From: a bacterium
GTDB taxonomy: Bacteria; Krumholzibacteriota; Krumholzibacteriia; G020349025
DNA length: 64,000 bases
Direction of reading: 5' to 3'
Assembly (NCBI GenBank): GCA_031362565.1
Contig: JANLSU010000029.1
Location: forward strand, 1-64,000
Position 1 is the stretch's first letter; the number at the start of each line of letters is the position of its first letter. Below, piece after piece: positions 42,001-51,000 of the stretch. Made by a program: the position numbers.

Positions 42001-45000
42001 GCGGGTGCAGCCGTTCCCAGGCGATCGGCGTACTCTCGATGGAGGCGCGCCAGGCCAGCACGAGTCCCAGCACCGTAAACACGATATTAGCCGCCCACAT
42101 GGCCAGGAACGGCGACAAGAGGCCGCGGTCGGCCAGCTTTTCCCCGCCGATGAGGAACAAATAGTAGACGAAGAAACACAGGATGCTGAACGTGATCGCG
42201 GTCGTCATGCCGCCCTTCCCGGAGCGGATTGCCAGCGGGCCGCCCAGTAGGACGAACACCAGGCAGGCGACCGGAATCGCGTATTTTTTCTGGATCTCCA
42301 CTTCGAGAGATTCGATCTCGTGTTCGTACGATTGCAATGAAGTGGCCTGGATGTGCACGTCGTCGCGGACGCGCTCTTCGGCGCCGATCGTCAGTTGCCC
42401 GGCGGGCAATGGCCGCGTCTTGGCGAAGTGCACGCCGCGTTTCTCGGGATCGAGGAGGTCCAGTTTCTTCTGCACGAGCGTGTGCGCGGGCCGGGCGAAC
42501 TGTTGCATGACCTGCGCCCTCTGAACGCGCTTCTCGGCGATCTCGGCCCGCATCATCGTGATGCTCATTTCGCGGTCGCTGCGGTATTCGCGTTCGGTGC
42601 GCATCAACTGCGAGCCGACATCGCGGATGAGGACCGTATGCTCGGTAAAGCGGGTAACTCGATAGACTTGATCCTTGCGCGCCTCGGCCTCCGGGAGCTG
42701 GTGCATCTCGCCGTCGTACAGGTCGACTTGCAGCGTGTTGCCGGCGTCGACCGGGATGATCCGGCCACGGGGTGCGACGATCAGATCGGGCGAGCGGTTC
42801 TGGTGCAACACGTACACCTCCACGTCGCGCACGTCGCCGGTTCGTTCGTCCTTGCCGCCGATGATGAGCTGATAGCCCTTGAGTTGGTCGACGAAGCGCC
42901 CCGGTTCGATATCGACGGTGGGGCGCTTGCGGGCGATGTCGGCGGTAAGGCCCGCGAGCCGGTGGTTGGACTCCGGCAAGATGCGGTCGTTGTAGACGAT
43001 CATGCCGGCGCAACAGAGCGCCGCCACGATGAGCGCCGGGAGCAGGATGCGATACAGGTGGACGCCGGCGGCCTTGAGCGCGGTGACTTCGTTGTCGGCG
43101 GCCATTTGGCCGAACGCCATCAAGGTCGCAACCAGCACGGCCATTGGTATGGACAGTGCTAGTGTATGGCCGAGGCTCAACGCGAGGACCTCGGTGATCG
43201 TGAGTGGCGACACTCCCTTGGCCAGGAACTCGTCGAGAAAATCCTTGAAGACCTCGAGGAACAGCACCCCGGTAATCACGAAGAAGCCGAACATGAACGG
43301 CCCGGCGTGGTTGCGGAGGATGTAACGGTCGAGGAGCTTCATCGCGCTAATGCCTTGGCAGTGCGGAACTTGAGGTGGACGGTGCAGGCGCGAACGCTAA
43401 CACGGCGACCCCGCCGTCTCAAGGGTTTTCCGAGCCGTTTCGGCGCTCGCCGAACGCCAGACACACCCTGAGTTCGTTGCGCCCCGTTGGTCGCGACGGC
43501 CGGCAGGCCGTGGGAGAGGTGCGCTTTCGTCCGACCTCTTTTGTGGATTCTCTGTCCAGCTTCGTGGACATTCCCCTGAGTTCGAAACGTTCGATCGCCA
43601 TGCGCGCCGCGTCCGCACCCGGCGTGTGTGGAACGAGGTGAGCGGATCATGCGCCCCAGCCCCGCAAGAGCGACGCAGCGTGCCGGCCGCGTCGGCCGCG
43701 CCGGGCGTTGGTTGGGCCGGATCCTTGGTCTCGTCGCCTTTACGTCGCTGACGCTCGGTGCAGCCGTCGCACCGGCGCCCATCCGGATCGGCCTGCGCGC
43801 CACTTTCGAGCAGATGCTCGACCGCCAAAAGGCGCGGGCCGAAGGCCGCGCCGTGACGTTTGGGTTGAACCCCAACACGCCGAGCCCGTTCCGGCTCACC
43901 GACGAACCGCAGCGCGTCCCCACGACGGTCTACAGCCCATGGCTCGATACCGTGTTCGAAATTTCGGGACCCGGCTGGGTGCCGCGCGAACCGGAGTACT
44001 ACGTCGTCGACGGCGCCTACCTGACGTACGACCCGCCCAATTTTCAGGATCCGTCGGTACGGGTGCGCGCCTTCGGGCGCGCTACCGCCGAGCGCACTCA
44101 GCTCGATGCCGCTGAACACGCCCTCTATACGTCGCGCCAGGCGGCGGCATTTGCCGGCGAGCACAAGGGCCTCTTCAATGCGGGCTCCGGAGTCAGTGTC
44201 ACGGTGCCGATTCGGATGCCGGGCGTGTTGTCGGAGTTCTTCGGCCGCGGCGCCACCAACATCAAGGTGACGGGGCGCGAGAACATCTCCTTCGCCGGCG
44301 AGTCGCGCACCGTGAGTCCCTTCCTGGCCGGTGAACAGGGCCGCGGCCAAAGCATCTTTCCGCGCCTCGACATGAAGCAGGAGCTGCAGGTCAAACTGGA
44401 CGGCACCATCGGCGACAAGGTGCACGTTCAGGTGGATCACAACAGCGCCGGATTTGGTGCCGACGCCAACCGCATCAACATCTACTACGAGGGCTACGAC
44501 GACGACATTCTGCGCCGCATCGATCTTGGTGGCACGAACCTATCGCTGCCCGGGTCCAATCTGGTGTCGTTCTCCGGCGGGCATCAGGGCCTGTTCGGCA
44601 TCAAAACGACGATGCGTCTCGGCGGGCTCGACTTGACGATGATCGCCAGCAAGGAAGAGGCGGACGTCGAGACGCGTACCGTGACGCCGTGGGGCGGCGC
44701 CGCCCGTCCGGTGCAGATCGAGGAGCGCAGTTTCCTGCGCGATCAGTTCTTCTTCTATTCGCGGCCGGATACGACCGGCGAGACGTTCGAAGGCACCTAC
44801 GGCATCGACCCCGACAGCCTGTTCCTCGACTCGACGGCGCCCAATATCCGCGTCTTCGTCGACACCCAGGATCCAACGACGCAGCCGCAGCGCAACTACC
44901 GAGGATTCGCCGTCGCCGACCTCGCGACGTCGAATGAAACGCAAATGGTCGACGCCTACAACAACGCCAACAGCAACTCCCGTTTCCCGGTCCCCGGCGC

Positions 45001-48000: not shown

Positions 48001-51000
48001 CTTGTTCGACATCTCCGGCGGGTACCGGAAGACCGACGGGGAATTCCGCCCCTTGCGGCAGCGCACCGGGTCGAACCGCGATGACCAAGGCTGGAACGCC
48101 CGGTTGAGCGTCGCGGATTTGTCGCGGCTCGTGCCGACGCTGGGATTCTCCATTCCGGTCGGCTACGGATACGAATGGAACCGGTCGCTGCCGAAGTTCT
48201 TCGAGCAAAGTGATACGCGCAATACACCGGAGCGCAAGCTCGACCAGCGCAACGAGAACGTTCGCAAGAGCTACAACTTCGGGGTCAGCAAGAAGCCGTC
48301 GCATTTCTGGCTCAGCAAGTTCACCCTCGACCGCCTGCAGTATTCGTTCGGCTCCGGCCGGACCGAGGCCCGGACATTCACGGCGCGCGACACGTCGACG
48401 ACGCGGACTCAGAATCTGGCCTACGACCTGCCGTTGCGCGAACGCCCCCTGGCTTTGTGGGGCAAAACCCGTCTCAACCTGGTGCCCACGAACCTGAAGT
48501 TCTCGCTCCAGTCGAACGCCGGCGACGCCGTCAGTTACCGGGTGCGGCGCGTTGCCGGCGTCGACAGTCTGGCACGCCAGGTGACGAGCCCGTCGCATTC
48601 GATCAATGTCAACGCGTCGACGGCATTCCACCCGGTGCCGGATTTCACCCTGCGCTATTCGTTTCAGGAACCGCGCGGTTTCCGTCTGGCCCATCCCGAC
48701 AACGAGCGGGAACGCATCAAATTCCTCGGCTACGACTTCGGCCTGCCGGTCGGCAGCCGTATCGAAGGCTACTCGGCCGAGTGGTCGCCGGGCGGCCTGA
48801 CGCTGGGCGGCAGCACGAACTTCGGCGACAGCCGCGTGCAGCAAGTCGATGCGTCGCCGCAGCACGTGGCATTGCCGGACCTGCACAACGCCAAGGTGGA
48901 CCGGTCGGCGCATGTCTCGTTCGTGTTCGGATTCCATCGTTGGGTCTTCGGGCACTTGCGCGCGTTGGCGCCCGTCAAGAAGCCGGCCGGACCACCGCAA
49001 ACGAACGGCTCCCCGCCGCCCATCGACGGGAACCGGCAGCCCGGCGGGGCCGACGGCAGCCGAACGCCGGCAGGTGGCGACAACAACCAAGAGGATCCGA
49101 CGACGCCTCTCGAGATCGACGCGCCGGATTCGTTGCGAACTTCGCAAGGATTCGCGCCGCCCGCACCTCGGAGTCCGGCCGACACTCTCGTGGGCAGGAC
49201 GCCGGCGTTGCCCATCGCCGGCGCCCAACCGGTGCCGGGCGGTATCGCCGCCAAGGACAGCACGCACACTCGCACCCGTCCGAAGGCACCCTCGCCCGTC
49301 GATCTCATGCGTGGGATCTTGAACGTCATGGCGGGGATCGAGCCCGTGAAGGTGGACTATCAAGTCGGGCAAGGGGTCGGATACGTGGGCTTGCCCGATG
49401 CACCAACCGGCGCGTTCCGTTACTTGCTCGCCAAACGTAGCGGCTTGCTGGGCACGGCGCGGTTCGAGACGCCGCCCGCCGAGAGCAACAACAACAACCT
49501 GGATCTGTCGACCGCGATTCCGCTGCGCGGCGCTCTGCGGATGGCGGCGCGCTACAAGCGCCGCGCCAGCGTCGGGCAATCACGCACCTTTGCCGTGCCC
49601 ACGGGTCGCACTGTCGAAACCTTGACGAATACCAACGAAGACCACCGGATCGAGACGACGTTCCCGAGCCTCGACCTCACCATCAACGACGTGCAGAAGC
49701 TGCGCCTGTTCACGAAGCGGCTCGAACGCTCCACCTTGTCGCTCAACTTCGCACGCACCACGAACAAGAGCTTCCGGCTCGACCAGGCTCCAGGCCGGGC
49801 GGCGGTCGAGGGTTCCGGCCGCAACCAAACCGACGGCACGACGATGACGGCAAGCTGGACCGGGCAGTGGCGCGGCGGCATGTCGAGCACCATGAGCCTC
49901 AATCAAACGAACAACACGGTGCTGGCACCCGGCACTCGTAGCGAGGGAGTGACGCGCCAAGTGCAGGCCGGCGTACGGTTCAAACTGGCACCGAAGGGTG
50001 GTCTGCGGCTGCCGTTCATGCATGGCAGTCTGAAGAGCGGCATGGACGTGTCGGTGAACGGCACTTTCAATACCGATGACCGCCAGCGACTCAACTCCGG
50101 CAGCCAGCCCATCATCGAGGCCAACGGCAGCTCGCTGAACATCGGAACGCGCGGCGATTACACCCTCTCCCGCAACATGAATGGTGGCGTGGAAGTCGGC
50201 TATACGCGGACATCGCGCGACGACATTCAGAAGCAGACCGTCAACACGGTCCGGCTCGGGTTCAACCTCACTTTCTTGTTCTGACCGCCAGCCGAACGCC
50301 GTCCGGCTCTGTGCCGTGGCGGCCGCCCGCCTCACTGCCGGCGGCGGCGGCCGGGCTTGCGCCCTTGGGGGGGCGCGTCGGCTTGCCAAACGGGCGAGCC
50401 TCCGACTATGCTCGCGAGAGGCCCGACCAAACCGGGACCCGCCAGGCAAACCATCAACCCGCATGGCCCCCGGAGCACGACGTGACCTGGACCTTGCCGC
50501 GGCCGGAGACTGCCCGACTCGTCCTCGAAGACGGCAGCGTTTTCCGTGGCCGCGCCTTCGGCGCACTCACCGAAGCGCTCGGCGAGGTTTGCTTCAACAC
50601 TGGCATGAGCGGCTACCAAGAAGTCATCACCGACCCGTCCTACGCCAGCCAGATCGTCGTCATGACGGCGCCGCAGATGGGCAACTACGGCATCACGCCG
50701 CACGACGAGGAATCGGCGCGGCCGCAGGTAGCCGGTTTCGTGGTTCGCGCCCTCTCGCAGCCGAGCAACTGGCGGAGCATCGAAACGCTGCATGAATATC
50801 TCGAGCGCTGGGGCATCCCGGGTCTCTATGAGGTCGACACGCGGGCGATTACGCGGCTGCTTCGCACCGGCGGCGCGCAACGCGGCGTACTCGCATCGGG
50901 AACGGCGTCCGCCGCCGAACTGCGCGACCGGGCGCTCGCCTGGCCGGGGCTCGACAACGCCGATTTGGCCCAGGTCGTCACCTGCAAGCAGATGTACCGT

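Follow-up and report, generated by a model that had tools for sequence, protein, structure and literature searches.

A type IX secretion gene set lacking a detectable GldLM motor in Krumholzibacteriota, and candidate TonB-type motors linked to its carriers

Introduction

In the Bacteroidota type IX secretion system (T9SS), release of cargo from the outer-membrane translocon SprA is held to need the GldLM motor and the GldKN track (PMC10994853), and the system is held to have first evolved within gliding machinery (PMC12635249). Reduced sets have also been listed: one confined to PorQ, R, Sov, U, V, X, Y, Z, SigP, Omp17 and PorF in a Bacteroidetes 'Incertae sedis' group (PMC7323717), and one of only PorV, SprA and Plug in Melioribacter and Ignavibacterium (PMC11705866). 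Both resemble the set described here in having Sov/SprA and PorV without PorK/L/M/N, and the first shares PorU, PorQ and PorX too. The motor-less Sov/PorV pattern is not wholly new, as the first-pass annotation of this DNA had suspected when it warned that such sets may be noted already for other FCB lineages. We take the 'Incertae sedis' group to be Rhodothermus and Salinibacter, names that are absent from the text searched. These earlier accounts are BLAST-level remarks on few genomes and name no energiser, whereas the present one covers a whole phylum and adds positive controls, cargo counts and carrier-linked motors. A scan of named genomes with part of SprA brought up a single, irrelevant locus, and statements on FCB phyla outside Krumholzibacteriota are drawn from papers only. 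In the literature that we searched, which did not include subscription journals, no energiser is proposed for such sets.

Results

The window, the whole stretch of DNA that was analysed, comprises 64,000 nucleotides of a Ca. Krumholzibacteriota genome that is 100% complete and has 4228 called proteins. The features around the translocon gene are:

40803..41936, reverse strand: lptG-like LPS export permease (TIGR04408, 198 bits)
41933..43342, reverse strand: lptF-like LPS export permease, in divergent orientation to sprA (TIGR04407, 187 bits)
43649..50284, forward strand: sprA/sov, the T9SS outer-membrane translocon, 2211 aa (TIGR04189, 450 bits against a cut-off of 200; PF14349)
50482..54985, forward strand: carA-carB-like genes 3' of sprA (carB by NF003671; carA from sequence and position alone)
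55141..55914, forward strand: M28 peptidase gene (PF04389)

SprA is full-length and 23% identical to Bacteroidota SprA. A profile made from 19 orthologues in the phylum aligns collinearly with the Parabacteroides protein (P. distasonis) at E 1e-146. Across the phylum sprA loci compared, an lptF/G-family gene adjoins sprA in 21/21 and the M28 peptidase gene, followed here by rimP-nusA-infB-like genes, is the usual downstream neighbour (15/21). The carA-carB-like genes lie outside the T9SS, carB standing behind sprA in only 2/21. No motor gene was found near sprA or porU-porV when the neighbourhoods of the 21 loci were compared.

As in the T9SS of P. gingivalis and F. johnsoniae, SprA/Sov is accompanied by PorV, PorU, PorQ-like barrels, PorX, type A-like C-terminal domains (CTDs), a probable SprE/PorW and a Skp-like gene (named from sequence) behind bamA. 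Unlike those systems, this one has no detectable PorK/L/M/N or PorP/SprF, and between bamA and skp it lacks a gene of porG size; its PorV-family carriers are expanded, some of them carrying Ig or TPR extensions at the C-terminus, its CTDs are FlgD-like, and flagellar-type genes are present. Three proteins exceed the cut-off of the PorU model NF033707 (two on contig C85, one on C131), with which four of the genome's 13 C25 matches were scanned, and the PorU sortases bear a CTD of their own. The porU beside porV scores 538 bits (cut-off 420); its PorV partner scores 184 with NF033709 (cut-off 90) and falls below the cut-off of the PorV equivalog model (114 against 250). The porU-porV operon is kept in 21/21 genomes and also holds a second SprA-like barrel, without a match in the plasmid collection, a DUF5683-like pair and an NHL protein, all uncharacterised and conserved. 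Six of the nine candidate barrels of the PorV/PorQ family pass NF033709, two more lie slightly below it (85 and 88 against 90), and PorX reaches 656 bits (cut-off 300).

A profile built from the genome's own CTDs finds the domain at the end of 217 of the 4228 called proteins and as an internal-only match in just one further protein, so that it is terminal in 217/218. Examples above the TIGR04183 cut-off were found; many tails fall below the TIGR04183 and PF18962 cut-offs and match FlgD_ig better. A crude signal-peptide test is passed by 124/217 CTD proteins as against 1119/3275 others, and the longest cargo runs to 2892-3287 aa. The T9SS-type set is unlikely to be a relic, because CTD proteins make up 11.7% of coding capacity and a CTD gene directly flanks 7/9 PorV-family genes. 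The translocon, the six PorV/PorQ-family barrels, the three PorU sortases and the PorX of the first-pass annotation are all borne out, as is its abundance of CTD proteins; its count of 158, obtained with other models, differs from our 217.

That annotation had also claimed that the PorK/L/M/N motor and ring are absent, conceding that no positive control had given a match for the GldM and GldN models. In the genome, the GldM model TIGR03517 and the GldN model PF19841 each gave 0 matches. Separate positive controls were needed because the 14 standard control genomes lack SprA, and these are now supplied: TIGR03517 matches 2/2 IMG/VR records with gldM, and PF19841 matches the gldN record of P. 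distasonis. Our own profiles, built from 33-49 gldK/L/M/N genes and 29 porP genes at training loci chosen by one exact motif, recover a held-out P. distasonis operon at E 1e-86 to 1e-191; applied to the genome's 50,604 six-frame ORFs, they gave best values of E 0.22 (GldL), 0.064 (GldM) and 0.22 (GldN), at the level of reversed decoys (E 0.46-1.2). Inspection by eye of the 62 proteins that have a pair of N-terminal membrane helices showed no GldL-GldM-like gene pair. For PorP/SprF, PF11751 gives only a sub-cut-off match, on PorV, and our own profile peaks at decoy level (E 0.007) on a PorV-family barrel. The FGE lipoproteins were rejected as GldK, in keeping with the earlier statement that the three FGE-sulfatase proteins are not GldK-like: the best scores 110 bits against a cut-off of 350 (control 544), and the track cysteine, kept in 31/33 GldK, falls in a column absent from 3/3 aligned FGE proteins. 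GldL, GldM, GldN, PorP and true GldK were thus not detected in the genome. No porG was seen at the bamA locus, no gene lying between bamA and skp, and a cysteine-tail screen, made without a PorG profile, yielded no convincing barrel; a C-terminal cysteine is present in 0/9 PorV-family barrels.

The motor-less pattern extends across the phylum, as the first reading had it. SprA occurs in 151/151 genomes (147 above cut-off) and a PorV orthologue in 61/61, while GldN was found in 0/151 and GldM_1st above cut-off in 0/151, with 12 weak matches. Alignment searches of 208 genomes returned partial matches in long frames (688-894 aa), for GldL in two genomes at E 0.008 and for GldM in one at E 7e-4; we found no credible match to either. 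The GldK search covered our own genome only.

A conserved family of TPR lipoproteins, represented at C122:22473-24311, is a candidate SprE/PorW, which it resembles in predicted structure. SprE is its top natural match in Foldseek (E 6e-9, 649 columns), TPR folds being generic, and among the VIA alignments the one to SprE is the longest, at 449 residues (Z 16.6, rmsd 9.4, rank 29). The SprE sequence model gives the candidate 66 bits, far below its cut-off of 250, which 0/61 phylum genomes exceed. F. johnsoniae cells that lack SprE are reported to trap cargo in the same way as cells that lack the motor (PMC10994853).

In two conserved operons, PorV-family carriers and CTD cargo are encoded together with ExbB-ExbD-ExbD-TonB motors, and this link, like the phylum-wide scale, is new here. 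Operon U contains a TonB-dependent receptor, CTD cargo, a PorV-family barrel, a GWxTD protein, ExbB, two ExbD, TonB, TolC and ABC genes. It resembles a Ton system in its ExbB, two ExbD and TonB with a TonB_C domain beside a TonB-dependent receptor, and differs in sharing its operon with genes for a PorV-family barrel and a CTD surface protein. The ExbB-ExbD-ExbD-TonB genes and the PorV-family gene occur together in 10/10 genomes selected for being without the operon A motor. A single copy of its ExbB gene is found in 123/125 genomes; these ExbB form one clade (support 100/99), and in 29 same-contig cases picked by hand the gene is 37-125 kb away from sprA. The operon's TonB is present in 111/125 and absent from 14/125, including the source genome (G000), where the locus has ExbB without ExbD or TonB, and both family relatives; no one TonB is common to all 125. 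G005 and G015 (2.2 Mb) have no MotA/ExbB-family genes beyond the operon U ExbB and flagellar MotA, and G021 and G025 none beyond the operon U ExbB and TolQ; all four genomes have SprA and PorV. The operon U motor may serve only the adjacent receptor.

Operon A comprises a CTD cargo of 1000-2000 aa, a PorV-family barrel ending in an FlgD-type Ig domain, a TPR protein of 1000 aa, ExbB, two ExbD, TonB and an Ig-domain protein, and in contrast to a Ton system its conserved families include no receptor. Of 20 loci selected because a TPR gene and a TonB gene adjoin, irrespective of PorV, 15 have all seven families. The Ig-domain gene is absent from the source genome, and its product has no credible solved-structure relative; a predicted complex of the TonB C-domain, the PorV-like barrel and the Ig-domain protein scored 0.00, evidence neither way. 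The operon A ExbB occurs in 85/125 genomes and the operon is missing in 40/125, including family f7 (0/4); with counts of only 85/125 and 86/125 genomes it was rejected as a universal energiser.

Three further ExbB-ExbD-TonB operons are present in the source genome, as are Tol-Pal and an Agl-Glt-like set. Tol-Pal was rejected as universal since the MotA-family genes of G005 and G015 include no TolQ. The Agl-Glt-like set resembles the core complex described from Myxococcus and other organisms (PMC3169522) in its large TPR protein, TolQ/R-like trio and TonB-like protein, to which the source genome adds an AgmX/PglI tail (74 bits, cut-off 40). The gene order of the cluster, which is cut by a contig end, would fit an aglRQS-like trio with GltG-like, GltD-like and GltE-like proteins. 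That tail exceeds its cut-off in just 36/151 genomes, and the cluster too was rejected as a universal energiser. Most phylum genomes differ from Agl-Glt in that they join the same ExbB clade to a PorV-family carrier and giant CTD cargo.

Discussion

The reading that we favour, with a probability of roughly 45%, is that these bacteria carry out working type IX export without a GldLM motor or GldKN track and power it with a TonB-type motor instead. By analogy with Bacteroidota, cargo would cross the inner membrane via Sec, its CTD would dock without energy on a PorV-family carrier inside SprA, and the carrier-cargo pair would then need force for its release, after which PorU would cut and anchor the cargo or the cargo would remain on a dedicated carrier. 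We propose that the force might come from an ExbB-ExbD-TonB motor, TonB pulling on a periplasmic handle; SprA, the SprE-like lipoprotein or an Ig or TPR extension at the C-terminus of a carrier could provide it. Operons U and A, the gene sets of G005, G015, G021 and G025, the SprE-like lipoprotein and the abundance of CTDs argue for this reading. Against it stand the receptor next door in operon U and the loss of its TonB from the source genome, the restriction of operon A to 85/125 genomes and the lack of its Ig-domain gene here, the sprA and porU-porV neighbourhoods without a motor gene, the distance of the operon U ExbB from sprA, the low SprE score (66 against 250 bits) and the generic nature of TPR folds. 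Bacteroidota, moreover, possess ExbBD-TonB yet require GldLM. The first-pass annotation had left the system 'energised another way or not at all'; the carrier-linked candidate motors favour the former.

Whether any motor is needed is the question raised by the strongest rival, which we regard as doubtful: SprA would free carrier-cargo pairs spontaneously, through carrier exchange, folding of the cargo outside the cell or a ratchet of PorU cleavage and anchoring, and the ExbBD-TonB sets would serve nutrient receptors and adhesins only. Such an arrangement would fit the undetected motor, ring and PorP, the lack of C-terminal cysteines on the carriers, the motor-free surroundings of sprA and porU-porV, the want of a universal TonB and the energy-free loading of cargo described in PMC10994853. 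It sits poorly with the trapping of F. johnsoniae cargo once the motor is removed, reported in the same paper, with the apparent retention of a SprE-like lipoprotein and with cargo of up to 2892-3287 aa.

It is unlikely, in our judgement, that a dedicated energiser has gone unrecognised, either GldL/M/K/N too diverged for profiles to detect or some unrelated machinery, such as a pilus-type ATPase or the products of the uncharacterised conserved genes in the porU-porV operon. GldM and GldL do evolve fast within Bacteroidota (median pairwise identity 29% and 37%, minimum 22% and 20%), the profile training loci came from a single motif, and several uncharacterised families are conserved in 14-20/21 porV loci. 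Four proteins carry what we take to be a secretion-ATPase-like Walker A motif. PMC7323717 offers this explanation too. Yet SprA was still found at 23% identity while L, M and N did not rise above decoys, the 62 two-helix proteins showed, by eye, no GldL-GldM-like pair, and the FGE proteins lack the GldK cysteine. That this is no working T9SS, with SprA in another role beside lptFG, which flank it in 21/21 loci, and with FlgD-like C-terminal domains that are not export signals, as the sub-cut-off tails and the modest signal-peptide count (124/217) might hint, is highly improbable given the CTD-bearing PorU, the porU-porV operon and SprA kept throughout, and a domain that is terminal in 217/218 proteins.

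If TonB-type motors do energise export, the motor-free module of translocon, carrier and sortase would be older than its tie to the gliding track. Going further, and only tentatively, SprA-PorV-PorU may have been an ancestral FCB export machine running on a TonB-type 5:2 motor, for which Bacteroidota swapped in GldLM/GldKN, while most Krumholzibacteriota may wire a PorV-family carrier and a giant CTD adhesin to an ExbB-ExbD-TonB-TPR motor of their own, combining type IX display with an Agl-Glt-like force transducer.

With SprA in 151/151 genomes, about 12% of coding capacity spent on CTD proteins here and no motor or track, there would be a second way of energising the pore, or none. The data suggest that the model of T9SS origin in the gliding machine is open to question and that the translocon is older than gliding, and cultured species with the same reported reduced set make the question directly testable.

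Results

Translocon, carriers, sortases and cargo

The SprA translocon reported by the first-pass annotation is a full-length ORF, and a second SprA-like barrel lies on another contig (C85) of the source genome:

43649-50284, + strand: SprA/Sov, full-length ORF (TIGR04189, 450 bits against a cut-off of 200)
C85:45205-48663 (extracted locus L043:7208-10663): second SprA-like barrel, 1152 aa, in the porU-porV operon, no Pfam family

The source assembly (5.41 Mb, 65% GC, completeness 100%, contamination 1.85%) gave 4228 genes with a purpose-built gene model, and the closest named homologues of these carry the label Candidatus Krumholzibacteria. 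The divergent layout of sprA and lptF/lptG-like genes is conserved in all 21 loci compared. A GWxTD-domain gene adjoins lptFG-sprA in 8 of the 21 (L086, L091, L097-L102); with another member in operon U (see below), this family is tied twice to T9SS loci. The porU-porV operon is present in 21/21 genomes examined, followed by families without assignment, and in 20/21 it includes the second barrel, which is modelled with about 36-40 long strands, shares a repeat with SprA and has SprA as its top three Foldseek matches (TM about 0.27). Homologues of this barrel are labelled KSB1, Rhodothermales and Bacteroidota.

Three source-genome proteins exceed the PorU cut-off, six barrels exceed that of the PorV/PorQ family (two more fall slightly below) and PorX exceeds its own, all as previously claimed. 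The abundance of proteins with a C-terminal sorting domain (CTD) also stands: the earlier count, made with other models, was 158, and a profile built from the genome's own C-terminal domains finds 217 with a terminal and only one with an internal CTD. CTD proteins occupy 11.7% of coding capacity, and a CTD gene lies directly beside seven of the nine PorV-family genes. A conserved TPR lipoprotein (C122:22473-24311) is probably SprE, its top natural Foldseek match and longest structural alignment, although it scores far below the family cut-off and TPR folds are generic.

Several loci deserve separate mention. At C85:55836-64608 porU (copies 92% identical) is duplicated in tandem along with a 54-aa upstream gene, where relatives have a single copy. 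Two CTD proteins are 2892 and 3287 aa long (C63:196-12501 and C123:75905-91519); behind the gene of each come one for a PorV-family barrel that ends in a TPR-like tail and a third that, judged by eye, could encode a membrane phosphatase or an anti-sigma regulator. These loci possibly serve surface sensing. At C83:32018-42324 and C86:21044-31637, genes for a TonB-dependent receptor, a PorV-family barrel and CTD surface proteins cluster together; these clusters resemble nutrient-uptake loci, with a CTD protein perhaps taking the place of SusD.

Absence of motor and ring

The earlier worry that the GldM and GldN models lacked a positive control was fair, since all 14 built-in control genomes are without SprA. 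Real gldKLMN loci, obtained separately, now remedy this: the GldM model matched both records carrying gldM and the GldN model the P. distasonis record, while neither matched the source genome. Our own GldK/L/M/N profiles retained 33-49 operons of 48-57 candidates after removal of outliers and near-duplicates. Across 50,604 six-frame source-genome ORFs the GldL, GldM and GldN profiles scored at decoy level only (held-out control, E 1e-86 or better). The GldK profiles found only generic FGE proteins, at 110 bits against a cut-off of 350 (control 544); these were rejected as GldK, also having no cysteine at a column conserved in 31/33 GldK, which we infer to be the track cysteine of PMC12635249. 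No GldL-GldM-like pair was seen by eye among the 62 source-genome proteins with two N-terminal helices, and PorP was not found in this genome. The reported lack of motor and ring in the source genome is thus borne out.

So is the pattern across the phylum, whose genomes are kin and hence non-independent samples. SprA occurs in 151/151 and PorV in 61/61 genomes, whereas GldN occurs in 0/151 and GldM_1st exceeds its cut-off in 0/151 (12 weak matches, uninspected). Alignment searches of 208 genomes, with no control run for that tool, returned only two weak partial matches for GldL and one for GldM, all uninspected. These counts cover GldL, GldM and GldN; GldK was searched in the source genome alone.

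Two side observations concern gld genes elsewhere. A lone complete gldM among phage genes on two IMG/VR contigs (L103, L104, 5980-7572) may have been captured from a host or may reflect chimeric assembly, and two P. distasonis PLSDB 'plasmids' carrying sprA-ruvA and porP-gldKLMN (L002, L224; NZ_OY725768.1, NZ_OY725749.1) look like chromosome pieces entered as plasmids.

Candidate force generators

The seven MotA/ExbB/TolQ genes of the source genome are flagellar MotA, TolQ, one in each of three ExbB-ExbD-TonB operons, one in an Agl-Glt-like set and an ExbB that stands by itself. No motor gene adjoins sprA or porU-porV in the loci compared. Two conserved operons, A and U, join a PorV-family gene and a CTD gene to ExbB-ExbD-ExbD-TonB.

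Operon A, reached by tracing the Agl-Glt-like set, encodes a giant CTD cargo, a PorV-family barrel with Ig tail, a long TPR protein, ExbB, two ExbD, TonB and an Ig-domain protein, and is complete in 15 of 20 loci (L228-L247; for example L240:3890-11878). It occurs in about two thirds of genomes (85/125 and 86/125) and is therefore accessory; it may be a motor-driven adhesin or sensor. The Agl-Glt-core-like cluster (C85:219499-227197, L056; core described in PMC3169522) is cut off by the contig end. Two family relatives have the TPR and AgmX-tail genes at a locus of their own, apart from the ExbB/ExbD genes.

Operon U, reached by inspecting ten genomes without operon A, comprises a TonB-dependent receptor, a CTD protein, a PorV-family barrel, a GWxTD protein, ExbB, two ExbD, TonB, TolC and ABC genes. 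The ExbB of this operon is monophyletic, single-copy in 123/125 genomes and, in two relatives (G005 and G015), the sole MotA-family gene apart from flagellar MotA. Its TonB is missing from 14/125 genomes, among them the source genome, where the ExbB stands alone at its locus.

Flagellar-type genes with MotA/MotB occur at C33:31837-36857 and in 2.2 Mb relatives (L258-L260); these bacteria likely swim rather than glide.

Discussion

Parts present or absent and gene order are what the genomes establish. Translocon, carrier, sortase and cargo are shared with the Bacteroidota T9SS, but motor and ring are not found, and because of this we regard the Krumholzibacteriota set as a variant rather than a member of the Bacteroidota type, although its parts predict that it works in a similar way. 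Cargo would cross the inner membrane by Sec, dock through its CTD on PorV within SprA and then be processed by PorU. According to PMC10994853, loading in F. johnsoniae is energy-free and release of carrier with cargo requires energy. We propose, at a probability of roughly 45%, that an ExbB-ExbD-TonB motor would pull the carrier free of SprA. Against the operon U motor in this role stand the genomes that lack its TonB, the adjacent TonB-dependent receptor, which would be an ordinary client, and the sprA and porU-porV loci, which have no motor gene beside them. Spontaneous or ratchet release of cargo is a weaker candidate, at long odds but a serious one. Slightly less probable again is a motor that is present but unrecognised, and undetected homologues were suggested for an 'Incertae sedis' group with 11 T9SS components and no PorK/L/M/N (PMC7323717). 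That the export set is non-working is very improbable.

That study and PMC11705866, which gives only PorV, SprA and Plug for Melioribacter and Ignavibacterium, bear out the suspicion that motor-less sets had been noted in other FCB lineages, if in passing. Elsewhere, SprA is recorded across FCB phyla except Chlorobiota (PMC12611786), T9SS signals are proposed for Fibrobacter (PMC6851124), the T9SS is inferred to originate within gliding machinery (PMC12635249) and a protease is reported to be secreted by way of a TonB-dependent transporter (PMC6434023); the available parts of PMC8754138, PMC11205867, PMC12204202 and PMC5445135 yielded nothing on motor-less sets. Our search, whose scope excluded subscription-journal reviews, found no paper on a Krumholzibacteriota T9SS or an alternative energiser. 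As far as this literature could be searched, what is new is the proof across the phylum, the size of the cargo load and the linkage of TonB motors to carriers; together these make the question of how the system is energised a testable one.
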